Position numbers and translations under genes: made by a program. Positions 30,988 through 62,446 of a stretch of 64,000 nt of DNA are shown here, in pieces; positions within the stretch are counted from its first letter, which is position 1, and every line of letters begins with the position of its first letter. Origin of the DNA: an uncultured Candidatus Saccharibacteria bacterium (GTDB lineage Bacteria > Patescibacteriota > Minisyncoccia > Phycocordibacterales > UBA9973); the NCBI GenBank assembly GCA_964402895.1, contig CAYODR010000001.1:53641-117640 (forward strand), in the 5' to 3' direction. Below the pieces are notes generated by a model. It was not told the origin of the DNA. It did no database searches and was given only the letters and a program-made list of their open reading frames with translations.

Positions 30988-31257
30988 ATGGAAGAATATG
31001 AAAAGAAAGAGTTAATGGAAGCTCTTTTACTTATACCCATGGTAGTAATCATGTTTGGAGCAGCAATATTAAATGCTTATACATTTCAAATGATTTCAGC
31101 ATTTGTGTTTACAATTGCTATTTGTATGTCAGGAGTTACTCTTATTTCTCACACCAAAAATTTTGATGAAAAAAATTATAACTACCAATTAAAATTATTC
31201 TATAGCTATATATTAGTTATAACTATAATTAGTATATCTCTTCGGTATTTTATTTAG
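30988..31257 (+). CDS. small membrane protein (89 aa, 2-3 TM), hypothetical
   Basis: Hydrophobic segments; driven by cassette A; terminator aaagctggctatgtccggctttttt downstream. Confidence 0.5.
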   Translation: MEEYEKKELMEALLLIPMVVIMFGAAILNAYTFQMISAFVFTIAICMSGVTLISHTKNFDEKNYNYQLKLFYSYILVITIISISLRYFI

Positions 31258-31322
31258 TTATAAATATAAAAGCTGGCTATGTCCGGCTTTTTTTATTGCT
31301 ATTTTTGTGTATAATAGCTGAT

Positions 31323-31880
31323 ATGAAGGATGAAGAAATTATATTTGATGATGAAATAGTTCCAAGTAATGAAGATGGTACAGAACTATCTGGTACTGAC
31401 AAAATCAAAAAACTTCGTGAAAAAATCAAAAAACTAGAAAAGGAAAAACAAGAATATTTAGATGGTTGGCAAAGATCTAGAGCCGATTATGCAAATGTGA
31501 TAAAAACAGCCGAAGAAGATAAGAAAGCTTTCAGAGTTTTTTTTGCTGAACAATTTTCTGAGGATTTATTCCCAGTACTTGATAGTTTTGATATGGCAAT
31601 GAAAAATCGCGAGCTTTGGGAAAAAGTAGATGAGAATTGGCGTCGCGGTGTAGAGTATATACATCAGCAATTATTAAACTCACTTTCAAATCATAACTTT
31701 GCACCATTTTGTATTGTTGGAGATGTATTTGATCCAAATTTACACGAAGCGGTAGAGTCTATAAATACAGACGACACTTCACTTGATAATACTATCGCGG
31801 AAGTATTGCAGTGTGGATACAGGATAGGTGAGAAAGTACTAAGACCAGCGAGAGTAAAAGTATATTCAAAACAAAAATAG
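31323..31880 (+). CDS. grpE: nucleotide exchange factor GrpE
   Basis: Coiled-coil N-terminus then GrpE core (WQRSRADYANV…FDPNLHEAV); start at MKDEEII. Confidence 0.85.
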   Translation: MKDEEIIFDDEIVPSNEDGTELSGTDKIKKLREKIKKLEKEKQEYLDGWQRSRADYANVIKTAEEDKKAFRVFFAEQFSEDLFPVLDSFDMAMKNRELWEKVDENWRRGVEYIHQQLLNSLSNHNFAPFCIVGDVFDPNLHEAVESINTDDTSLDNTIAEVLQCGYRIGEKVLRPARVKVYSKQK

Positions 31881-31899
31881 GGCATAGCCCTTTTTTGTT

Positions 31900-32430
31900 T
31901 TACATTAAATGATTTAGAAAGGTTTTTTCACTTTCTTTATCTAATGTATCTGTGACAATAATGATGAGTTCTGTACTTAATCCTAAATCTGTTTTTATGT
32001 TCATGAACAAGTGTTCAAGTGGTAGGTGAGAAATCCAAACAGAATTTTTAAGTAATACAAAACCAGCTTTCTTGAGTAAGTATCTTAAACCGTCTCTTTC
32101 TGATTTTCTATCTTCCGGAAGATCAAGCATTATGATTCGCCATTTACCATCCCAATTTGGATTAAAAAGGGCATTTGTATGTTCTAATTTTATACTATGT
32201 GCTTTTCTCTTTCCTTCGCGCGTTAGGCGTGTATAAGTATTTTGTCCAGAATAGTGTGTCTCAACCATTCCAGTGTCTTCTAGACCTTTTAAAGACCTTT
32301 TAAGCGTGTATTTTGCTCCGCCCATATCTTTTATCGCATCTTCAAGTTCCGGCACAGATACGGCTGGTTTAGAGGATAATAGGCTTATTATCTTCTTAGA
32401 GAAAGACTGTTTTTTGTCTGTTTTCTGCAT
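31900..32430 (-). CDS. PaaX-like winged-helix transcriptional regulator
   Basis: N-terminal wHTH (VSVPELEDAIKDMGGAKYTLKRSLKGLEDTGMVE), C-terminal PaaX_C-like (DGKWRIIMLDLPEDRKSERDGLRYLLKKAGFVLLKNSVWISH); divergent from dnaK. Confidence 0.55.
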   Translation of the reverse strand: MQKTDKKQSFSKKIISLLSSKPAVSVPELEDAIKDMGGAKYTLKRSLKGLEDTGMVETHYSGQNTYTRLTREGKRKAHSIKLEHTNALFNPNWDGKWRIIMLDLPEDRKSERDGLRYLLKKAGFVLLKNSVWISHLPLEHLFMNIKTDLGLSTELIIIVTDTLDKESEKTFLNHLM

Positions 32431-32432
32431 AT

Positions 32433-32460
32433 TTGCATCATATCAAAAAATTGTTATAAT
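32433..32460 (+). promoter_or_regulatory. dnaK promoter with extended -10 (TTGCAT-16-TGTTATAAT)
   Basis: -35-like at 32433-32438, TGt-TATAAT at 32452-32460. Confidence 0.5.
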
Positions 32461-32471
32461 AACAACAAGTA

Positions 32472-32487
32472 TTTCACGACCGTGAAA
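32472..32487. promoter_or_regulatory. perfect palindrome TTTCACG-AC-CGTGAAA, candidate operator at the dnaK transcription start
   Basis: 7-bp arms with a 2-bp spacer directly downstream of the dnaK -10, between the divergent PaaX-like regulator and dnaK; not CIRCE. Confidence 0.45.
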
Positions 32488-32542
32488 ATGATGCATAGAA
32501 ATACTATTGATGTTATTGGAAATTTAATTTTTTTGAAAAAAT

Positions 32543-34426
32543 ATGGGAAAAATTATTGGAATTGACTTAGGTACTACAAATAGTGCTGTAGCTATAATTG
32601 AAGGTGGACAACCAAAGATTATTGAAAACATAGAAGGTGCAAGAACTACTCCTTCTATTGTGGCACAAGCTAAAAATGGAGATAGACTTGTTGGTCTTTT
32701 GGCTAAAAGACAAGCTGTGACTAATCCACAAAATACTGTATACGGTATTAAGCGTTTAATGGGTCACAAATATACTGATCCAGGTATTGATAAGGTGACT
32801 TCACATATGCCTTTTAAGGTATCTGCCGGAGCCGATGGTGGTGCAGTTGTGACTCTTGATGGAAAAGAAAATCGTCCAGAAGAAATTTCAGCAATGATTT
32901 TGCAAAAGATTAAGACTGATGTAGAAGCAAAGATTGGGGAAAAAGTAACCGAAGCTATTATCACAGTACCAGCTTACTTTAATGATGCGCAAAGAAAAGC
33001 AACAAAAGACGCTGGAGCTATTGCGGGACTTGATGTGAAAAGAATCATCAACGAACCTACAGCAGCTGCGCTTGCTTATGGATTAGATAGTAAAAAAGAT
33101 GAGCAAGTAGTAGTCTACGACTTCGGTGGAGGTACATTTGATGTGTCTGTACTTGAAATAGGTAATGATGTCATAGAAGTAAAATCAACTGATGGTGATT
33201 CAATGATGGGGGGTCGTGATATTGACCAAAAAATTGTTGAATGGATTGCTGATGAATTTAAAAAAGAATCAGGTATTGATGTGACTAAGGATCCTCTTGC
33301 ACTTCAAAGACTTGATGAGGCAGCTGAAAAAGCAAAAATTGAACTTTCAACTACAACAGAAACAGAAATCAATATCCCATTTATCACATCAACAGATGCA
33401 GGACCTCAGCACTTATTACTCAAACTCACTCGTGCTCAGCTTGAAAATCTAGCAGATGAATATATCGCTCGCTCAATAGAAATCACAAAGCGCGCGATTG
33501 AAGCTTCACCATTTAAAATAAATGAAATAGATGAAATCATTCTAGTTGGTGGACAAACTCGTATGCCAAAGATTCTAGAAGAAGTTAAGAAACTATTTGG
33601 AAAAGAACCGAATCGTTCAATCAATCCAGATGAAGTTGTAGCTATGGGTGCAGCTGTACAAGGCGGTGTACTTCAAGGTGATGTGCGAGATGTACTCTTG
33701 CTTGATGTAATCCCACTTTCACTCGGTATTGAAACTTTAGGAGGGGTTGCAACAAAGCTTATAGAAAAGAATAGTACTATCCCAACTTCAAAGAGTCAGA
33801 CATTCTCAACAGCCGCTGATAATCAAACTTCTGTAGAGATTCATATCACTCAAGGAGAAAGACCGATGGCGACTGACAATAAATCTCTAGGTAGATTTGT
33901 CCTAGAAGGTATTCCACCAGCACCAAGAGGTACTCCACAAGTAGAAGTGACTTTTGATGTAGATGCCAATGGTATCTTGAATGTAAAAGCAAAAGATAAA
34001 ACTTCTGGTAAAGAGCAATCTATCAGAATTGAGGCTTCAAGTGGACTAACAGATGAGGAGATAGAAAAGATGAAAAAAGATGCAGAGATGCATGCAAAAG
34101 AAGATGAAGAAAAGAAAATGATGGTAGATGTAAAAAACAATGCCGATACTCATATCTTCACAGCTGAAAAATCTCTAAATGATCATAAAGATCAAATCAC
34201 TGATGACATTCGAGATGCTGTTCAATCAAAAATAGATAATCTGAAAAATGTAAAAGAAGGAACAGATAAGACTGCTATTGAAACTGCTATTGATGAGCTT
34301 TCAAAAGAAATGCAAAAGATAGGGGAAGTAATGGCAAAAGCAAACCCTGCTGAAAATACAGATGCTGGAGCTGATAATGTAAAAGATGCAGAAGCAACTG
34401 ATACTACAGACGAAGAAAAAGCTTAG
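32543..34426 (+). CDS. dnaK: molecular chaperone DnaK (Hsp70)
   Basis: [18 protein letters not shown], full Hsp70 signatures; 627 aa. Confidence 0.95.
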
Positions 34427-34440
34427 AAAATAAAGCTTAA

Positions 34441-34490
34441 AATACTAAAACACCCTATAATATAGGGTGTTTTAGTATTGACTTTTTTCA
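34441..34490 (+). terminator. terminator: 19-bp perfect palindrome + T-run
   Basis: aatactaaaacaccctata / tatagggtgttttagtatt, then gacTTTTTTca. Confidence 0.7.
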
Positions 34491-34528
34491 TAATATATGA
34501 TATTATTTAATCGAATAGGATAAGCAAA
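34478..34528 (+). promoter_or_regulatory. conserved promoter+leader cassette, copy B (TTGACT-17-TATTAT + TTAATCGAATAGGATAAGCAAA)
   Basis: -35 at 34478-34483, -10 at 34501-34506, conserved leader at 34507-34528. Confidence 0.65.
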
Positions 34529-34562
34529 CAAAATTTTAACTCTTTAACAAAAGAATATTGAA

Positions 34563-35150
34563 ATGGAAAAATTAGAAGAAATCAAGTCATTCATCAAACG
34601 TTCTGTACATTTTACAAACTTTTCAGGATATACTGATCCTAGGGAAGTAGACTGGGATGAACTCATTCAAATCTCAAAGTATCAAAAATCTAAAAGACAC
34701 GGCTTCACTCTAAATCAAGAAACTCTGGGTTTAGATTTTGAAAAGTTTAAACCAACCATTATTTCTAGAGAAGAATGGTATAATAAACCAATAGGAAAAG
34801 TCTGTGAAGAAGTTATCAAAGAATATAGTGATACTCACTATATTCCTGGCTTTGAATACCAAAAATGGTTGAGACAAAATCCTGATAAAGTACCATCATT
34901 TCTAGAAGATGGAAAACGATATTATACTCCAGGAACCGTGTTTACCCACTGCTCAGGCAGAGTGGATATCCCTTTTGGGTGGTATTATGAGGGGTACCGG
35001 TGGCAATGTTGTTTCAGCGGAGATTCTGTCGAGTGGCCTTTTGGTTCCAACGGGGGTATTATCCTCCTACCGCGAAAAAAAGATATCTTACTTAAAGAGG
35101 CAATAAAACTCTGTGAGGAAAATGGATTTACTGTTTCAAGACCTTTGTAA
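34563..35150 (+). CDS. hypothetical Cys/Trp-rich protein with GC-rich 3' region (…YRWQCCFSGDSVEWPFGSNGG…)
   Basis: 195-aa ORF driven by cassette B. The 34950-35060 segment is markedly GC-rich. It shares a DGK…C…CCF motif with ORF complement(6206..6718). Confidence 0.5.
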   Translation: MEKLEEIKSFIKRSVHFTNFSGYTDPREVDWDELIQISKYQKSKRHGFTLNQETLGLDFEKFKPTIISREEWYNKPIGKVCEEVIKEYSDTHYIPGFEYQKWLRQNPDKVPSFLEDGKRYYTPGTVFTHCSGRVDIPFGWYYEGYRWQCCFSGDSVEWPFGSNGGIILLPRKKDILLKEAIKLCEENGFTVSRPL

Positions 35151-35169
35151 ATTCAAATTTCAAGATTTT

Positions 35170-35212
35170 ACCTTCTCCCCCGAGCCCCGCAGTGATGCGC
35201 GGCTTTTTTTAT
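35170..35212 (+). terminator. rho-independent terminator
   Basis: gccccgcagtgatgcgcggc then TTTTTTTA. Confidence 0.55.
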
Positions 35213-35309
35213 TACATAAAAATAATATAATTAAAATATTCAAAATTAAATACTAAATATTTTAAGTAGTATAAATTTAGGGGACATAAGTTGTGATTAT
35301 TTAAACCTA

Positions 35310-35338
35310 TTGACTTTTTATAAAATATATTTTATTAT
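35310..35338 (+). promoter_or_regulatory. promoter cassette copy W (TTGACT-17-TATTAT; leader diverged)
   Basis: -35 at 35310-35315, -10 at 35333-35338. Same -35/T5/-10 architecture as copies A, B and Z. Confidence 0.55.
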
Positions 35339-35392
35339 ATGTAAAAATAAGAACTAACAAACAAATTATTGACAACAAAATATGGATGAATT

Positions 35393-36070
35393 ATGAAAAA
35401 AATCTTTTTTACCGCACTCTTTTTGGTTTTTGCATTTTTTGCTAAATCTCAAACAATTGGGACTTTTGTTGCAACAAACAACGGTATTGCAACTATTCCA
35501 TTGTTCACACTGGGTGATCCTGCTACAATATTTTCATTAAAACATACTGGAAAAAGATTTGAAGTCCAGAATGAAACTGCTTTTAATTTAAAAAGCGGCA
35601 GTGCTTGGTTTGTAAATAACTGGTTAAGATACAGGTATGAACCTACTGAAGGACTTGAGTTTTTTGTAGGAGGAAGTTATACCTTAAATTTTCCACAAGA
35701 TCGTACTGTAATACACTATAAGGTGTATGAAGCAAAAGTTTTATATTCTTTTAAAAAAGCTGGAACTTTTGAATTAAAGTATTGGTATCTTGATCCAATG
35801 AAGGTTGATGGGAACAATGGTGTTAAGGGTGGTTATACTGGTTTTATATATTTAAAAAATATTGAAACAAAAAGTATGATTATTCAAATTTCACCACAAA
35901 TCTGTCATATAAATTTTATTGGCAGTATTAAGGGATTTTCTACCTCCGCATCTTTAAATGCTTTGCACAAAAAAACGGGAATCTTCGCGGGGACGCAAGG
36001 GATAAAACCTTTGATTGAAGGTATTGATCCATCCTGGAATGTCTCGGTTGGATTGGTAAAAAGTTTTTAA
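35393..36070 (+). CDS. secreted beta-rich protein, hypothetical
   Basis: Signal peptide MKKIFFTALFLVFAFFAKSQ; alternating hydrophobic/aromatic beta-strand pattern; terminator cacctgat-aca-atcaggtg+T7 at 36093-36118. Confidence 0.55.
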   Translation: MKKIFFTALFLVFAFFAKSQTIGTFVATNNGIATIPLFTLGDPATIFSLKHTGKRFEVQNETAFNLKSGSAWFVNNWLRYRYEPTEGLEFFVGGSYTLNFPQDRTVIHYKVYEAKVLYSFKKAGTFELKYWYLDPMKVDGNNGVKGGYTGFIYLKNIETKSMIIQISPQICHINFIGSIKGFSTSASLNALHKKTGIFAGTQGIKPLIEGIDPSWNVSVGLVKSF

Positions 36071-36160
36071 CATTATTTACGCCTTAGGCGGGCACCTGAT
36101 ACAATCAGGTGTTTTTTTATATTCTTTTAATTTTGTCTAAAATATGATATACTCTTGCGC

Positions 36161-36238
36161 ATGAACAAGAAACGAAAAATAGCAGCAAAGAAAAAGCGTA
36201 AGGCAGCAGGAAAGAACGTTTCTCTACGCCATCGCTAA
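36161..36238 (+). CDS. candidate 25-aa Lys/Arg-rich peptide (MNKKRKIAAKKKRKAAGKNVSLRHR)
   Basis: Sits between its own upstream terminator and -10-like TATACT and a downstream hairpin aaaaccggag…ctctggtttt + T-run; no SD; below ORF-track cutoff. Confidence 0.35.
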   Translation: MNKKRKIAAKKKRKAAGKNVSLRHR

Positions 36239-36329
36239 TGATAAAACCGGAGAATATCTCTGGTTTTATTTTTTATATTTTGTGGTATAATCACAAAATA
36301 AATTATAATAATTTTTATTATTTAAAACT

Positions 36330-37388
36330 ATGAAAGACTATTACGAAACATTAGGTATTGATAAAAATGCATCTAAAGATGAGATTAAGAAAGCATTTCA
36401 CAAGCTAGCTCATAAATACCACCCAGACAAAAATGGCGGTGATGATACAAAGTTTAAAGAAGTGAATGAAGCTTATCAAACTCTTTCTGATGATCAAAAG
36501 CGTGCTCAATACGACCAATTTGGTAGTGCTGGACCACAAGGAGGTTTTGGTGGTTTTGATATGGGTGGTTTTGATTTCTCAGGATTTCAGCAAGGAGGTT
36601 TTGGTGGTTTTGATATGGGAGATATTTTTGGAGACATCTTTCGCGGTGGAAAAAGTCGTACAAGAAGAGGTGCTGACCTTCAAACAAAAATCAACATTGA
36701 TTTTAAAGAAAGTATTTTTGGTGTAGAGAGAGAAATTAAAATCACAAAACCATCTGTGTGTAATGACTGTGAGGGTTCGGGTGCTACTAAGGGCACAGAA
36801 ATGGAGACATGTTCTCAGTGCGGAGGAAAAGGTAGTGTAAAAAATGTACAAAGAACTATTCTCGGATCTATTGCTACAAATCAAACCTGTAGTAAATGTA
36901 ATGGACAAGGAAAGATTCCAAAAGATCCTTGTAAAAAATGTAAGGGTAGTGGAGTAGTAAACGAAGCTCGTACTATCAAAATCGCAGTACCCGCAGGCAT
37001 TAATCATGGAGAAACACTTCGTTTAGCTGGTATGGGTGAAGCTATATCTGGAGGTCAAGCTGGGGATCTTTATGTAATAGTATCAGTATCTCAAGATAAA
37101 AAAATAACTCGTCAAAGAAGTGATTTATTTTATACATTACCAATCAAGCTTACCGATGCGCTTCTTGGTTCGGAATACAAAATACAAACTCTTGATGGAG
37201 AAATTGATGTAAAAATACCGGCAGGAACAAAAGTTGGTGATACTGTATCATTAAAAGGATATGGTGTACCTACTGGTTTTGGTTCAAAAAGAGGTGATTT
37301 TATCATCAATCTAGATATCTCACTACCAAATAAACTTTCAAAAAAAGCTAAAGATATAATAGAAGAATTAAAAAAGGAAGGGATATAA
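36330..37388 (+). CDS. dnaJ: molecular chaperone DnaJ
   Basis: J domain with HPD (YHPDKN), G/F-rich repeats (GGFGGFDMG x2), four CxxCxGxG zinc-finger repeats; extended -10 TGgTATAAT upstream. Confidence 0.95.
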   Translation: MKDYYETLGIDKNASKDEIKKAFHKLAHKYHPDKNGGDDTKFKEVNEAYQTLSDDQKRAQYDQFGSAGPQGGFGGFDMGGFDFSGFQQGGFGGFDMGDIFGDIFRGGKSRTRRGADLQTKINIDFKESIFGVEREIKITKPSVCNDCEGSGATKGTEMETCSQCGGKGSVKNVQRTILGSIATNQTCSKCNGQGKIPKDPCKKCKGSGVVNEARTIKIAVPAGINHGETLRLAGMGEAISGGQAGDLYVIVSVSQDKKITRQRSDLFYTLPIKLTDALLGSEYKIQTLDGEIDVKIPAGTKVGDTVSLKGYGVPTGFGSKRGDFIINLDISLPNKLSKKAKDIIEELKKEGI

Positions 37389-37434
37389 GAAAAGCGCACC
37401 AAGTGGCGCGCTTTTTATTTTTGAAAAAAAAGAA

Positions 37435-39183
37435 TTAAGAAACTACAGGTGTTGTTTGCAATTCCCACATTTCTTTGTAGTCAGCACAATCATTGATTAA
37501 CTCATTGTGGTTTCCTTGATGTTTTATTTCTCCTTTTCCGAGAAGAATAATTTCATCGAGTATCGCCACAGTGGACAATCTATGAGCTATGACTATTAGG
37601 GTTTTACCAGAGAAATTTTCTTTGATTGCATCTTGGATAGACTTTTCAGTCTTTGCATCAAGAGCACTTGTTGGCTCATCCATAATCACAATAGGTGCAT
37701 CTTTTAAGATGGCTGCTGCTATAGCAATTCGTTGGCATTCTCCACCAGAAAGTTTTACACCTCTTTCTCCAACAATAGTATCAAATCCATTTGGAAATTT
37801 TTCCCAAATAAAATGACAACTTGCTTTTTCAGCTGCTGATCTGATTTCTTCAAAACTAGCATTTGGTTTACCCATAGAAATAATATCAATTATTTTTTCT
37901 GATGGAAAAATAGGAGATTGGGGAACATAAGATACCCATGAGCGAATTACAGCCTTATCTGTTTCATTTAATAGATTTGATCCTATATAAATTTCTCCTA
38001 ATTTGGGCTGATAGATTCCAAGTATCAATTTTGTGATAGTAGATTTACCAGCACCTGTTTCGCCTATAATTCCATAGCGGACACCGCTTTGAAATTCAAT
38101 TGATAAATCTTTAATCACAGGTTCATTTTTACTGTAATTAAAAGAAACTCTATCAAATTTTATACTGTTTTTCTCCAATATAACTTTTTGAGTATCATCA
38201 ATAGGTTCTTCTTCAGGGTGATTCATAAGCTCCGAAAGCTCATAGGCTTCTGCAAAAGCTGTTCTTACTTTAACCACACTTCTACCGAGTCCCCACATAT
38301 AAGCAGTCAAAGACGCAATATATGACTGGACTAAGACGGCTGTACCGAGCGTATGCGTACCTTTTATAACTTCTTTAATTACAAAAGACATACATAGTAT
38401 CTCAAGAGTAATGACTAAAGCTGATTGAATCAGCCATTGAAAATTTCCGAAGTACCATGATTTCCGTCTTTTCAGTTCGTCTTGATGGGTTAATTCGCTG
38501 TACTTATTTACAGTTCTTTGAACTGAAGAAAAGACTCTAATGGTAAATATAGATAAAAATATATCACTCATTTTACTAGTTACAGCAGAATCAGCTTCAG
38601 AGCTTACTAAGTCATGCTTTTCTCGAATCATGGATAATAATATAGTAGTAGTTGCAAAAACTATTACCCATATAATAAAAATCCAAACTATTTCAGGAAT
38701 TACAAAACTTATATAAGTGATAATAAAAATCACTAAAAGAATTGATTTATTGATTGAATATACAAATTCATCAATAATTGATTCTGATACATGAGAAAAT
38801 CTTTTAGACTTTGCGACTAATCCTCCGGAGGTAGTATCTGTAAAAAATTTCGCACCCTTTCTTAGAAGGTTGTCCATCGAATAATTTTTGAAATCTTTTA
38901 TCGTTTTTGCCTCAACAAAAACAACTAAGAAATCCCCAATTCTGTTTAGAACCCATGCAAAACATAATGCTATTACTATGTAGTAAAAGGGTGTCCAATC
39001 AAAACTTTTGTTTGCTAAAAGGTCAAAAATAGCTTTGTACTGCGTAGGTTTAAATATCGCATCAGCATATAGTGCTAATGAGTACAAAATAGTAATCGCA
39101 AGGAAATTCCATTTATTTTTTAAATAAACATTTTTCCAATGTGCCCAAACTGTTTGGGTTACTTTCTTTTTTCTTTTTTCCAT
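37435..39183 (-). CDS. ABC transporter permease/ATP-binding protein (exporter, fused TMD-NBD)
   Basis: 6 TM + NBD with Walker A GETGAGKST, signature LSGGECQRIAIA, Walker B IVIMDEPTSALD. Confidence 0.85.
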   Translation of the reverse strand: MEKRKKKVTQTVWAHWKNVYLKNKWNFLAITILYSLALYADAIFKPTQYKAIFDLLANKSFDWTPFYYIVIALCFAWVLNRIGDFLVVFVEAKTIKDFKNYSMDNLLRKGAKFFTDTTSGGLVAKSKRFSHVSESIIDEFVYSINKSILLVIFIITYISFVIPEIVWIFIIWVIVFATTTILLSMIREKHDLVSSEADSAVTSKMSDIFLSIFTIRVFSSVQRTVNKYSELTHQDELKRRKSWYFGNFQWLIQSALVITLEILCMSFVIKEVIKGTHTLGTAVLVQSYIASLTAYMWGLGRSVVKVRTAFAEAYELSELMNHPEEEPIDDTQKVILEKNSIKFDRVSFNYSKNEPVIKDLSIEFQSGVRYGIIGETGAGKSTITKLILGIYQPKLGEIYIGSNLLNETDKAVIRSWVSYVPQSPIFPSEKIIDIISMGKPNASFEEIRSAAEKASCHFIWEKFPNGFDTIVGERGVKLSGGECQRIAIAAAILKDAPIVIMDEPTSALDAKTEKSIQDAIKENFSGKTLIVIAHRLSTVAILDEIILLGKGEIKHQGNHNELINDCADYKEMWELQTTPVVS

Positions 39184-40765: not shown

Positions 40766-40800
40766 AAAAAATACCCCTAAATTATTTAGGGGTATTTTTA
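40766..40800. terminator. bidirectional terminator (lysS/cysS)
   Basis: aaaaatacccctaaat-t-atttaggggtattttt: 12-bp palindrome flanked by A/T runs. Confidence 0.75.
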
Positions 40801-49272: not shown

Positions 49273-50691
49273 ATGGAAAGAATATATATAAAAGATTTAA
49301 ATACAAAAAAAGGAGAAGAAATCCTTATTAAAGGTTGGGTGGACGTACGCAGAGATCAGGGGAAAATGGTTTTCTTTGATTTTAGAGATATGTCTGGGTA
49401 TATACAAGGTGTTGTACTTCCTAATAGACCTGAAGTCATTGAAGTAGCTAAAAATACACGCCCTGAAAGTGTGGTCGCTGTACACGGTATCGTAAATCAA
49501 AGACCAGAAAGAAATGTACAAGCCGATAAACAAAATGGTGATATTGAACTTGAAATCACTGGTATTGAAATACTGAACCACGCAGAACCGCTTCCTTTTG
49601 AAATCAATGTAGACACAAAAGAAGTAAATGAAGAAGTTCGACTTAAGCATAGATATCTAGACTTAAGAAGTGAGAGAATGCAAAAAAATATCAGAGCAAG
49701 AGCATCTATCGTTCATCATATTCGTAATTTTTTGCATGAAAATAAATTCATTGAAATAGAAACTCCTATCCTAACAAAAAGTACGCCTGAAGGCGCTCGC
49801 GACTATATCGTACCTAGTCGTATTTATCCTGGTAATTTCTATGCACTCCCACAATCACCTCAACAATATAAACAACTTTTGATGACTGGTGGTATGGAAA
49901 GATATTTCCAAGTAGCTAGATGTATGCGCGATGAAGATACTCGCGGTGATAGACAACCAGAATTCACTCAACTAGATATGGAAATGAGCTTTGTCCAAAG
50001 AGAAGATGTGATGCAAATGAATGAAGAGCTTTTGATAAGTATCGTCAAAACTTTTTATCCTGAAAAGAAAATCCAACAAATCCCTTTTCCAAGACTTTCA
50101 TATAAAGAAGCGATGGAAAAATATGGATCAGATAGACCAGATATCAGAGAAGATAAAAATGATCCAAATTTACTAGCATTTTGTTGGGTGATAGATTTTC
50201 CTTTCTTTGAAAAAACTGATAAAAGTGATAATCCTGATGGAGAAGGAGAGTGGACATATACACACAACCCATTTTCAAAACCAGTAAACGAACATATGCA
50301 AAATCTACTTGAGAAAAAAGATATAGGAGATATCTTAACAACTCAATATGATATTTGTTTAAATGGATATGAAATAGGCGGGGGGTCAATTAGAAATCAT
50401 AGTTATGAAGCATTGATGAAAGTATTTGAAATCCTAGGACATAAACAAGATAAGATAGAATCAGAGTTTGGGCACATGCTAAATGCTTTCAGGCTTGGTA
50501 CACCACCACACGGGGGTATTGCATGGGGATTAGATAGGTTTGTGATGCTAATGCAAAATGAACCAAATATCAGAGAGGTGATAGCCTTCCCAAAAACAGG
50601 TGAAGGCAAAGACCCGATGATGAATGCTCCTGCTAAAGTATCAGACAAACAACTGGCAGAACTTCAAATAGCTTTGAAAATAAAAGAGTAA
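49273..50691 (+). CDS. aspS: aspartyl-tRNA synthetase
   Basis: OB-fold N-domain, class II motifs (FQVARCMRDEDTRGDRQPEFTQLD, GGGSIR, GLDRFVM); ATG at 49273 (the track start at 49252 is TTG). Confidence 0.9.
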   Translation: MERIYIKDLNTKKGEEILIKGWVDVRRDQGKMVFFDFRDMSGYIQGVVLPNRPEVIEVAKNTRPESVVAVHGIVNQRPERNVQADKQNGDIELEITGIEILNHAEPLPFEINVDTKEVNEEVRLKHRYLDLRSERMQKNIRARASIVHHIRNFLHENKFIEIETPILTKSTPEGARDYIVPSRIYPGNFYALPQSPQQYKQLLMTGGMERYFQVARCMRDEDTRGDRQPEFTQLDMEMSFVQREDVMQMNEELLISIVKTFYPEKKIQQIPFPRLSYKEAMEKYGSDRPDIREDKNDPNLLAFCWVIDFPFFEKTDKSDNPDGEGEWTYTHNPFSKPVNEHMQNLLEKKDIGDILTTQYDICLNGYEIGGGSIRNHSYEALMKVFEILGHKQDKIESEFGHMLNAFRLGTPPHGGIAWGLDRFVMLMQNEPNIREVIAFPKTGEGKDPMMNAPAKVSDKQLAELQIALKIKE

Positions 50692-50697
50692 ATAATA

Positions 50698-50730
50698 AAA
50701 ACAGCTACATTGTAGCTGTTTTTATTATTC
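50698..50730. terminator. bidirectional terminator (aspS/rmuC)
   Basis: aaaacagctaca-ttg-tagctgtttt. Confidence 0.65.
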
Positions 50731-61219: not shown

Positions 61220-61753
61220 TTATATAGATTTGATTTTGAGTACAGCCTTACGCTTCTTATCTAGCTTTGGAAGCTTTATAAGCAGCATTCCATGTCTTTC
61301 TATTGCTTCTGCGTTATCTATATCAACTTCTTCTGGTAAGTCTATTGTACGCTCAAATTTGCCCCAATAAAGCTCCTTTATAAAATAAGAATCCATTGAG
61401 ATTGTTTTATTTGGTTCTCTTTTTCCAGAGAGAGTAATAGAGTCACGAGTAGTATTGATAGATAGGTGCTCTGGAGAGACACCAGCAATCAGTGTCTGTA
61501 CTATTATCTCATCACGAGTCTCGTACACATCAACAGAAAGCTCTCCAACTTCATCTGCTTCAAGTAGTGTAGAAACTTCAACTTCTTCAGTTTCAATTTC
61601 TTCATCTTCATAAGAAAGAGATATTTCTCTACTAGGAAGTGGTTCACGGTTTTTTAATTTAGAAGAATGATCGTCTTCTTCATAAAATTCATCTTCAGAA
61701 TCACTAAACCTTAAGTTGCCAGTGAGTCTTTCAAAAAAAGATCTTTTTTTCAT
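61220..61753 (-). CDS. Hsp20/alpha-crystallin family small heat-shock protein
   Basis: Alpha-crystallin domain (LSVDVYETRDEIIVQTLIAGV…ITLSGKRE…GKFERTIDLPEEVD…GMLLIKLPK). Confidence 0.8.
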   Translation of the reverse strand: MKKRSFFERLTGNLRFSDSEDEFYEEDDHSSKLKNREPLPSREISLSYEDEEIETEEVEVSTLLEADEVGELSVDVYETRDEIIVQTLIAGVSPEHLSINTTRDSITLSGKREPNKTISMDSYFIKELYWGKFERTIDLPEEVDIDNAEAIERHGMLLIKLPKLDKKRKAVLKIKSI

Positions 61754-61759
61754 AATTCT

Positions 61760-62446
61760 TTATAGAGTTGCCTCCTTAGGAATGCGTCTGAGTTTTTCAA
61801 GCATTACATGACTAATAATAGCAGCGATCCACAAGTATCCATAAATTTGTAGCGCACTTGCAGTATCATCCTTAAGTATAAATAAATTAAAAGTTGCATG
61901 CAAGGCTGTAGCACCTATTAAGCCAAACAAAATAGAACTCTTCCTACTATTTACACTCGAGATACCAATAATAATTCCAATAAAAGCACTTGAGATAGTA
62001 TGAAGCAGTGTCGCACCAAAGAATCTCATACTTCCAGTCAAAAGACTTGCTGTGATATCTGATACAACAGTTGGTTGAAGTACATAAAATACATTTTCAA
62101 GTGCCGCAAAACCAAGAGCAACAGCTATTAAATATATAGCCGAATCAATAGGTTCATCATTATGAATACTTTTATAAGCAACAATATAAAAAACTAAAAA
62201 TTTTATAAACTCTTCTATAAAAGACCAAACGACTATTTTTGTTTCCTCTGAAGAAAATAGGGGATTAAATAAATTTTGCAAAAAAGCTGCAAAATAAATA
62301 CTAAGACCACCAAAAATAAAACATATAGCAATAAGTCTAAATGGTTCTGGATTATCCTTATCTGTTCTAAGCCAAAATAATAACCAAAAAATAGCAGGAG
62401 CAACTCCAAGTAGTAGCGCTATGCTTGTCGGACTTAATTCGGCCAT
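61760..62446 (-). CDS. PrsW-family intramembrane protease
   Basis: Multi-TM protein with EEFIK (EExxK) and HATFN motifs. Confidence 0.6.
   Translation of the reverse strand: MAELSPTSIALLLGVAPAIFWLLFWLRTDKDNPEPFRLIAICFIFGGLSIYFAAFLQNLFNPLFSSEETKIVVWSFIEEFIKFLVFYIVAYKSIHNDEPIDSAIYLIAVALGFAALENVFYVLQPTVVSDITASLLTGSMRFFGATLLHTISSAFIGIIIGISSVNSRKSSILFGLIGATALHATFNLFILKDDTASALQIYGYLWIAAIISHVMLEKLRRIPKEATL

Follow-up and report, generated by a model that had tools for sequence, protein, structure and literature searches.

A gene for a short PaaX-like winged-helix protein lies divergently from dnaK in a 64,000-nucleotide stretch of DNA (contig CAYODR010000001.1, positions 53,641 to 117,640; the window), and a perfect palindrome of 16 bp, TTTCACG-AC-CGTGAAA, is located between the two genes just behind the dnaK promoter. 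The divergent open reading frame (ORF) of 176 amino acids (aa) is called REG here. With a probability of roughly 0.68, REG would be a dimeric repressor that controls dnaK via this palindrome and probably regulates its own gene as well, in a circuit similar to HspR/HAIR or HrcA/CIRCE, but with a regulator from a different protein family. The window originates from the ultra-small Patescibacteria, class Paceibacteria (alias Minisyncoccia), in which REG and the palindrome are jointly conserved in well over a hundred genomes. Its closest proteins and loci all carry the label Paceibacterota, Nomurabacteria or Minisyncoccia, and its G+C content is 34.5%.

The palindrome (32472-32487) and the extended -10 element preceding it (32452-32460), from which the original prediction started, were read directly in the sequence, and their coordinates are correct. 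The palindrome is the sole match in the window, even if two mismatches are allowed. Taken by itself, the window argues only weakly against chance, with 17 of 100 shuffled sequences giving at least one match at two or fewer mismatches; the palindrome is significant because it is conserved across species. To cover one genome per species, 80 Paceibacteria loci with a total of 583 kb were scanned. The degenerate motif TTTNRYGRYCRYNAAA (TTTNRYG-RY-CRYNAAA) has 50 exact matches in these loci, compared to 0.15 expected from shuffled sequences, and all 50 fall into the intergenic region between REG and dnaK. A weight matrix derived from the orthologous sites (score cut-off 14) detected one strong site in 76 of the 80 loci and nothing comparable elsewhere in them; no second operator site was found in any of the 8-kb loci. 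The presence of the palindrome in orthologous dnaK promoters, which had been expected from the window, was thereby confirmed. A second weight-matrix site is also missing in the window, where the next best match scores 9.8 versus 20.7 and lies inside the coding sequence of dnaJ. This agrees with the earlier observation that the regions upstream of grpE, dnaJ and hsp20 do not carry the palindrome.

The linkage of REG to chaperone genes is conserved as well. In 76 of the 80 genome loci dnaK is positioned divergently upstream of REG, and two of the other four do not contain enough upstream DNA. The grpE gene is convergent and downstream of REG in 73 of the 80. In a metagenome scan seeded with divergent members of the REG family, all homologues scoring above about 110 bits against REG adjoin grpE or dnaK, whereas weaker homologues with 27-36% identity never do. 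A second group of orthologues, clade 2, shares 37-49% identity with REG (loci L082, L085-L088, L090, L093 and L161-L164) and shows a different arrangement according to gene calls: ribosomal protein S9, one further gene and REG on the opposite strand are followed by grpE, a 124-aa ORF, dnaK and dnaJ. In both clades, the chaperone transcription unit begins with the gene that is divergent from REG. As the gene order of clade 2 differs, the link between REG and a chaperone promoter has survived rearrangement, and its persistence in two gene orders is hard to explain by inherited synteny alone. Altogether, REG and a palindromic site co-occur in about 100 loci. The original prediction had been staked beforehand on the linkage of REG homologues to chaperone genes elsewhere, and this linkage was found in 76 of the 80 loci and in clade 2. 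Thus, two features that mark chaperone repressors as a class are present here, namely a regulator gene that accompanies chaperone genes in many taxa and a conserved palindrome overlapping the promoter or start of a chaperone gene. In the 80 loci REG has a median identity of 61% to its counterpart in the window, compared to 78% for DnaK and 52% for GrpE; the higher value of REG compared to GrpE indicates that REG is under strong constraint.

The sequence of the palindrome varies among the loci in a symmetric manner. Its arms occur as CACG/CGTG, CGCG/CGCG, AGCG/CGCT and AGTG/CACT, so that a C-G pair is replaced by T-A or A-T, and 83% of the core arm pairs are Watson-Crick pairs. The mismatches on the dnaK-sense strand comprise 25 G.T and about 30 A.C combinations and show no strand bias, which favors a DNA site over an RNA hairpin. 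In addition, the central dinucleotide alternates between AC and GT. The pattern of substitutions indicates that the symmetry is kept at the level of DNA, as for the site of a symmetric dimer, and not at that of an RNA hairpin. Single operators of clade 1 often combine GC and GT half-sites, which suggests that these positions are read as purine or pyrimidine only. In the closest relatives, the REG proteins of which are 98% and 80% identical, the 16-mer and the promoter block show few or no changes, whereas the remainder of the 5' untranslated region (UTR) diverges; the 16-mer itself is identical throughout relatives with 80-98% REG identity. The conserved flank ACAAGTA to the left of the palindrome reads TACTTGT on the other strand, where it leads into the -35 element of REG. 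A motif-anchored alignment (consensus ACAaGTA) revealed that this flank is mirrored on the dnaK side in many relatives, resulting in an extended palindrome of 30 bp.

The arrangement of the promoters is consistent with a function of the palindrome as an operator. The dnaK promoter P1 is of the sigma-70 type according to a promoter scan. Its -10 hexamer TATAAT (32455-32460) is preceded by TG, and the palindrome starts 11 nt after the extended -10 element TGTTATAAT. Transcription is predicted to start at about position 32467, which places the palindrome at approximately +6 to +21. In relatives P1 usually consists of TTGACA, a spacer of 16-18 nt and TATAAT or TATACT, corresponding to 11-12 of 12 consensus positions, and in 61 of 77 loci a gap of 11-17 nt lies between the end of the -10 element and the site. 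The clade of the window itself uses a variant, TTGCAT with TGnTATACT, which lies below the threshold of the P1 scan across loci. The REG promoter overlaps P1 on the opposite strand. Only 6 nt separate its extended -10 element TGATATGAT from the ATG at 32430, and a Shine-Dalgarno sequence is lacking; given this short distance, the REG mRNA is probably leaderless. A similar leaderless-type geometry of the REG promoter was seen in relatives, e.g. L089 and L164. With respect to the REG start the palindrome is located at -42 to -57.

Additional promoter elements adjoin the site in other genomes. A second dnaK-ward promoter, P2, is present in 33 of the 77 loci and in clade 2, and its -35 element TTGTCA starts 3 nt after the site. 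On the opposite side of the site, 26 of the 77 loci have a REG-ward -35 element at a distance of about 6 nt. In clade 2, the operator TTTCAY-W4-RTGAAA lies between two divergent TTGTCA -35 boxes, and these boxes constitute the outer arms of an apparent 30-bp palindrome (in L164, TTGACAAGTT-TTTCATTTTTGTGAAA-AACTTGTCAA). Because the -35 boxes flank the core, a dimer bound to the core would cover the P1 start region and abut both boxes. Thus, the repressor-operator position proposed originally holds with respect to P1, but the geometry is richer in many relatives, where the -35 boxes of P2 and REG abut the site. Repression is favored over activation, since promoters so close to the consensus need repression. 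In the clade of the window, a conserved box TAGAAATACT lies behind the palindrome at a distance of 8 nt, where other clades have the P2 -35 element. It forms an inverted repeat with AGTATTTC, a sequence that extends over the left edge of the palindrome, and may represent an auxiliary half-site or a remnant of P2.

The REG protein was analyzed for its relationship to PaaX, to which the original prediction had assigned it. REG matches PF20803 (PaaX_M), the central Cas2-like domain of PaaX, with an E-value of 1.3e-19 and 70.5 bits (cut-off 24) at residues 91-169. The match to the PaaX equivalog TIGR02277 is partial, covering model positions 26-138 of 279, and reaches 41.2 bits, far below the cut-off of 264.55. 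A match to HTH_20 is weak. The AlphaFold model of REG (predicted local distance difference test score 79) contains a winged helix at residues 5-81, with three helices and two strands forming the wing within residues 5-68, and a beta-alpha-beta-beta-alpha-beta-alpha domain at residues 96-174. A sequence search of the PDB with the REG family profile returned only generic winged-helix proteins (E >0.02), so that a fold search was needed to reach PaaX. Here, the best matches of the model in Foldseek were E. coli PaaX (8a39, E 7.6e-7) and a PaaX-like protein (3l09), with alignments spanning 163-174 columns. REG therefore harbors a central Cas2-like domain of the PaaX type and, as judged from the model, a PaaX-type N-terminal winged helix. 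The C-terminal helical domain of PaaX is absent: the chain ends at residue 176, compared to 250-305 aa in PaaX proteins, and there is no Pfam match beyond PaaX_M. Thus, the divergent orientation and the PaaX-like fold stated in the original prediction were retained, whereas membership in PaaX proper was not; due to the missing ligand domain REG is PaaX-like in fold, but it is not an orthologue of PaaX. In PaaX, dimerization is a function of the middle domain, and the inducer is bound by the additional C-terminal domain (PMC9493321). The PaaX dimer acts as a repressor and competes with RNA polymerase at promoters, its own among them (PMC9493321). By analogy, REG probably binds DNA as a dimer. 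No small-molecule pocket is evident in REG.

More than 1100 homologues of REG were identified, and the median identity across the 80 species is 61%. In a library clustered at 50% identity, 19 clusters with E <1e-30 correspond to the dnaK-linked orthologous group, and 1126 clusters with E <1e-10 represent a wider family of short proteins that resemble PaaX and are about 180-200 aa long. The paralogues that are not linked to dnaK are short proteins with a winged helix and PaaX_M, and their genes sit singly between housekeeping genes (L102-L160). About one third of them have long, loop-less perfect palindromes of 30-64 bp within 200 nt of the gene. The density of palindromes in these loci is 1.82 per kb within 200 nt of the gene versus 0.075 per kb elsewhere, an approximately 24-fold difference. 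Frequently the gene has a palindrome on either side; paired copies from one locus are near-identical, whereas copies from separate loci differ. Such bracketing was also seen in L109, L114, L126, L137, L144 and L147. Palindromes centered on RCG-RY-CGY, like the dnaK site, number 17 within 200 nt of the paralogue genes, compared to none in the remaining 267 kb, and in L136 and L116 the center is the exact 16-mer TTTCGCGACCGCGAAA, the consensus of the dnaK operator. This type of palindrome therefore travels with the REG protein family, which is the best computational argument for its recognition by the family. The differences between the clades point in the same direction. From clade 1 to clade 2, the recognition helix and the wing change from TRSLKGL and HSGQ to NRAIKxM and ETEQSSF, and in step with them the operator center changes from G-RY-C to four A/T bases. 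These joint changes are consistent with direct recognition. Possible functions of the palindromes flanking the paralogues are those of operators, of insulators or of the termini of a small mobile unit. Ordinary terminators are an unlikely explanation for them, as they lack loops, have CG-rich centers and occur as near-identical upstream and downstream copies, whereas the terminators of the window have loops of 1-4 nt and are flanked by A and T runs.

The arrangement around REG also allows other explanations than repression of dnaK. The site might serve REG alone, as an autoregulator or an activator of its own gene, with dnaK merely placed at a shared intergenic region. The distance between the motif and the REG start is indeed tight (median 32 nt, interquartile range 31-41) compared to 13 to 1148 nt between the motif and the dnaK ATG; moreover, an upstream regulatory site could well lie where the core does, at -42 to -57 of the REG promoter, and the paralogues have palindromes just upstream of their own genes too. 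However, it is the promoter-operator block that is fixed, and the variable stretch up to dnaK is 5' UTR or assorted small ORFs under the same promoter. In two loci, L030 and L042, an opposite-strand gene is inserted between REG and the site. There, the site and the promoter stay with the dnaK-ward unit and the weight matrix detects no site belonging to REG itself; likewise, no site was detected in L058, in which REG is located away from dnaK. These three arrangements and the composition of the stretch up to dnaK disfavor pure autoregulation. Together with the near-consensus dnaK-ward promoter ahead of the site in most loci and the chaperone linkage retained in two gene orders, they render a site for REG alone improbable. 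As the search for regulators covered individual loci, the palindrome might also be the operator of another regulator encoded elsewhere in the genome, and REG a neighbor with a different target. This is quite unlikely in view of the roughly 100 loci in two gene orders that contain both, of palindromes with the same core that adjoin only REG-family genes in 290 kb of paralogue loci, and of a half-site spacing of about 10 bp, which suits a winged-helix dimer. Finally, all loci belong to one class-level group (Paceibacteria/Minisyncoccia) in which the ribosomal S9 cluster is syntenic too, so that the conservation could reflect inherited synteny without regulatory meaning. But the intergenic DNA around the site diverges freely while 16-mer and promoter are fixed, changes in the arms are compensatory, and the divergent pairing with a chaperone promoter persists although the gene order differs between the clades. 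Mere synteny is therefore hardly credible.

The palindrome could also act in the form of RNA, as a 5' hairpin that stabilizes the dnaK mRNA or serves as an RNA thermometer, with REG being unrelated. Transcripts from P1 include the site, many genomes have an extended version with a potential stem of 14 bp beginning at the predicted start, and co-varying arms would preserve an RNA stem as well. On the other hand, the mismatches lack the strand bias expected of a transcript and the center flips between AC and GT. A center of 2 nt cannot form a loop, and the element is far from the start codon, at a variable distance, and there is no Shine-Dalgarno sequence that it could mask. The main promoter of clade 2 and of many clade 1 genomes is downstream of the site and yields an mRNA without it. 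In addition, the dnaK 5' UTR folds no better than shuffled sequences (z = 0.14), and similar palindromes flank the paralogue genes on both sides. A search of positions 30800-37500 gave no Rfam match. Based on the missing Rfam match, the shuffled-like folding and the absence of an excess of G.U over A.C, an RNA element was rejected as very unlikely.

From the observed gene pair, palindrome, promoter geometry and conservation we infer REG as the binder, repression as its mode of action and a stress signal as the cue. REG would form a homodimer in which the winged helix contacts DNA and the Cas2-like domain mediates dimerization. The dimer would bind the 16-bp palindrome at approximately +6 to +21 of the strong sigma-70-type dnaK promoter, just upstream of the -35 element of the overlapping divergent REG promoter. 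Bound REG would block transcription of dnaK and probably damp its own; its release would de-repress dnaK. The signal for release is likely to be protein-folding stress or heat, perceived via thermal instability of REG or via titration by the DnaK system, as known for HspR. Several points weigh against this repressor model. The match between protein and operator at the clade level rests on one or two evolutionary events. The core is centered near -47 to -50 of both the REG promoter and P2, where an activator could sit. The operator covers dnaK alone here and leaves out grpE, dnaJ and hsp20, which is narrow for a heat-shock regulon. HrcA, HspR or RpoH as well as extra operator copies, e.g. at groESL or clpB, may exist outside the loci covered here.

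The proposed circuit was compared with known systems. HrcA exerts negative control of dnaK and groE via CIRCE (controlling inverted repeat of chaperone expression), a perfect inverted repeat between the -10 element and the start codon of a sigma-A-type promoter. The REG site resembles it in being a perfect inverted repeat in the same position, with the regulator gene beside grpE, dnaK and dnaJ, but REG belongs to another protein family and CIRCE is a 9-N9-9 repeat (TTAGCACTC-N9-GAGTGCTAA). As originally noted, neither component is visible here: CIRCE has no match at three or fewer mismatches in the 64-kb window, and no HrcA domain was found in the window ORFs tested. Searches by tblastn, with query sequences entered by hand, revealed neither HrcA nor HspR in 1.12 Mb of Patescibacteria loci comprising about 110 chaperone loci, and groEL and groES are not present in any of the collected sequences. 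In Actinobacteria, Deinococcus and Helicobacter, HspR is a small repressor at the dnaK locus that acts on an inverted-repeat operator at a vegetative-type dnaK promoter and regulates itself. The circuit logic proposed for REG is the same. However, HspR is a MerR-family protein, is co-transcribed at the 3' end of the dnaK operon and recognizes HAIR (HspR-associated inverted repeat; CTTGAGT-N7-ACTCAAG), whereas REG has no MerR domain and HAIR matches in the sequences are at chance level and elsewhere. DnaK is established as a co-repressor of HspR; for REG such a role is only a hypothesis. Phr of Pyrococcus and RheA of Streptomyces are small dimeric, autoregulating repressors with palindromic start-site operators, and some of these proteins are intrinsic thermosensors. 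They correspond to the arrangement proposed for REG, but they occur in other lineages, have unrelated dimerization domains (coiled coil or TetR-like) and show no detectable sequence relationship to it. PaaX, the repressor of phenylacetate catabolism in E. coli and Pseudomonas, shares winged helix and central Cas2-like domain with REG, but binds phenylacetyl-CoA with the C-terminal helical domain that REG lacks. Its operator TGATTC-N27-GAATCA differs from the compact 16-bp palindrome putatively bound by REG, and the predicted target of REG is a chaperone gene. Matches to the PaaX box are at chance level with none near the locus, and no paa genes are found near REG, the neighbors of which are ribosomal and chaperone genes.

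The Patescibacteria (Candidate Phyla Radiation) comprise a large share of bacterial diversity and very few of them are culturable; to our knowledge, almost nothing is known about their gene regulation. The locus provides a candidate regulator-operator pair defined by sequence in this group. If the prediction holds, a new protein family joins the few repressors of bacterial chaperone genes, the PaaX scaffold is able to function in the absence of the ligand domain, and a first point of entry to stress sensing in minimal-genome organisms is available. No published description of this regulator was found in the searchable literature, which omits most subscription journals. A more far-reaching proposal is possible but doubtful: REG might be the master chaperone repressor of many Patescibacteria and at the same time a domesticated member of the palindrome-bracketed winged-helix/Cas2-like family, with a co-opted palindrome as dnaK operator. 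In that case REG would join sigma-32, HrcA, HspR and CtsR as a fifth type of heat-shock regulator in bacteria. In the larger family of about 1100 clusters at 50% identity, singly inserted genes are bracketed by two near-identical, long, loop-less and locus-specific palindromes. These units could be an unrecognized self-contained element, either mobile or self-insulating, the protein of which recognizes its own flanking palindromes. The bracketed paralogues may prove more novel than the dnaK circuit, and cognate palindromes throughout the family would offer a route to target prediction for hundreds of uncharacterized paralogues.

Table 1. Features of the REG-dnaK locus and its surroundings in the window, with examples of palindromes from paralogue loci
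Feature	Position	Strand	Evidence or description
REG	31900..32430	-	176-aa ORF; translation, PF20803 match
dnaK (Hsp70), putative regulated gene	32543..34426	+	PF00012, E 1.2e-244
Putative operator TTTCACG-AC-CGTGAAA	32472..32487	.	perfect; 7-bp arms, 2-bp center; half-site centers about 10 bp apart
dnaK promoter P1	32432..32460	+	-35 TTTGCA 32432-32437, 17-nt spacer, extended -10 TGTTATAAT 32452-32460
REG promoter	32437..32465	-	-35 TTGTTA 32465-32460, 17-nt spacer, extended -10 TGATATGAT 32445-32437; consensus match only
Conserved flank ACAAGTA	32465..32471	.	other strand TACTTGT; alignment consensus ACAaGTA
Conserved box TAGAAATACT	32496..32505	.	inverted repeat of AGTATTTC at 32468-32475; motif-anchored alignment
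grpE	31296..31880	+	PF01025, E 1.2e-41; probable start ATG 31323
Terminator-like hairpin, bidirectional, common to grpE and REG	31879-31891		shared by the convergent genes
Intrinsic terminator 3' of dnaK, strong	34441..34479	+	18-19 bp stem, then T run
dnaJ	36330-37388	+	downstream of dnaK and two ORFs
hsp20	61220-61753	-	within the window
Paralogue palindromes, L136	3329-3368 and 4004-4043		example
Paralogue palindromes, L131	1205-1244 and 1921-1960		example

Within the window, REG and dnaK are preceded by a cluster of ribosomal genes and rpoA that ends with S9 (30438-30842), followed by a small ORF and grpE. Downstream of dnaK, two ORFs without family matches precede dnaJ (Table 1). The grpE gene is convergent with REG and lies outside the operator-controlled unit in this genome. 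The strong terminator behind dnaK suggests that dnaK is probably monocistronic here, so that the site would control dnaK alone. The two ORFs between dnaK and dnaJ (34563-35150, 195 aa; 35393-36070, 225 aa) match neither Pfam nor NCBIfam families. They are followed by terminator-like hairpins at 36090-36114 and 36240-36270, which identify dnaJ as a separate unit. In several relatives, small ORFs are located between the operator-promoter block and dnaK (L013, L026/L050/L066, L034/L051, L047/L065, L030, L032, L037 and L057). Among the ORFs inserted before dnaK are two families of 87-89 aa and 113 aa, a P-loop kinase-like protein of 174 aa and an ATPase-like protein of 391 aa; all of them would be co-regulated with dnaK.

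The hsp20 gene is positioned directly downstream of a gene for a PrsW-family intramembrane protease (61760-62446, minus strand), with which it apparently forms one transcription unit; no REG-type site was seen upstream of this unit. Unusually long perfect hairpin terminators with stems of 16-19 bp and loops of 1 nt are found in intergenic regions of the window, e.g. at 34441-34479, 40767-40799 and 50691-50729. As the intergenic terminators are flanked by A and T runs, they may act bidirectionally.

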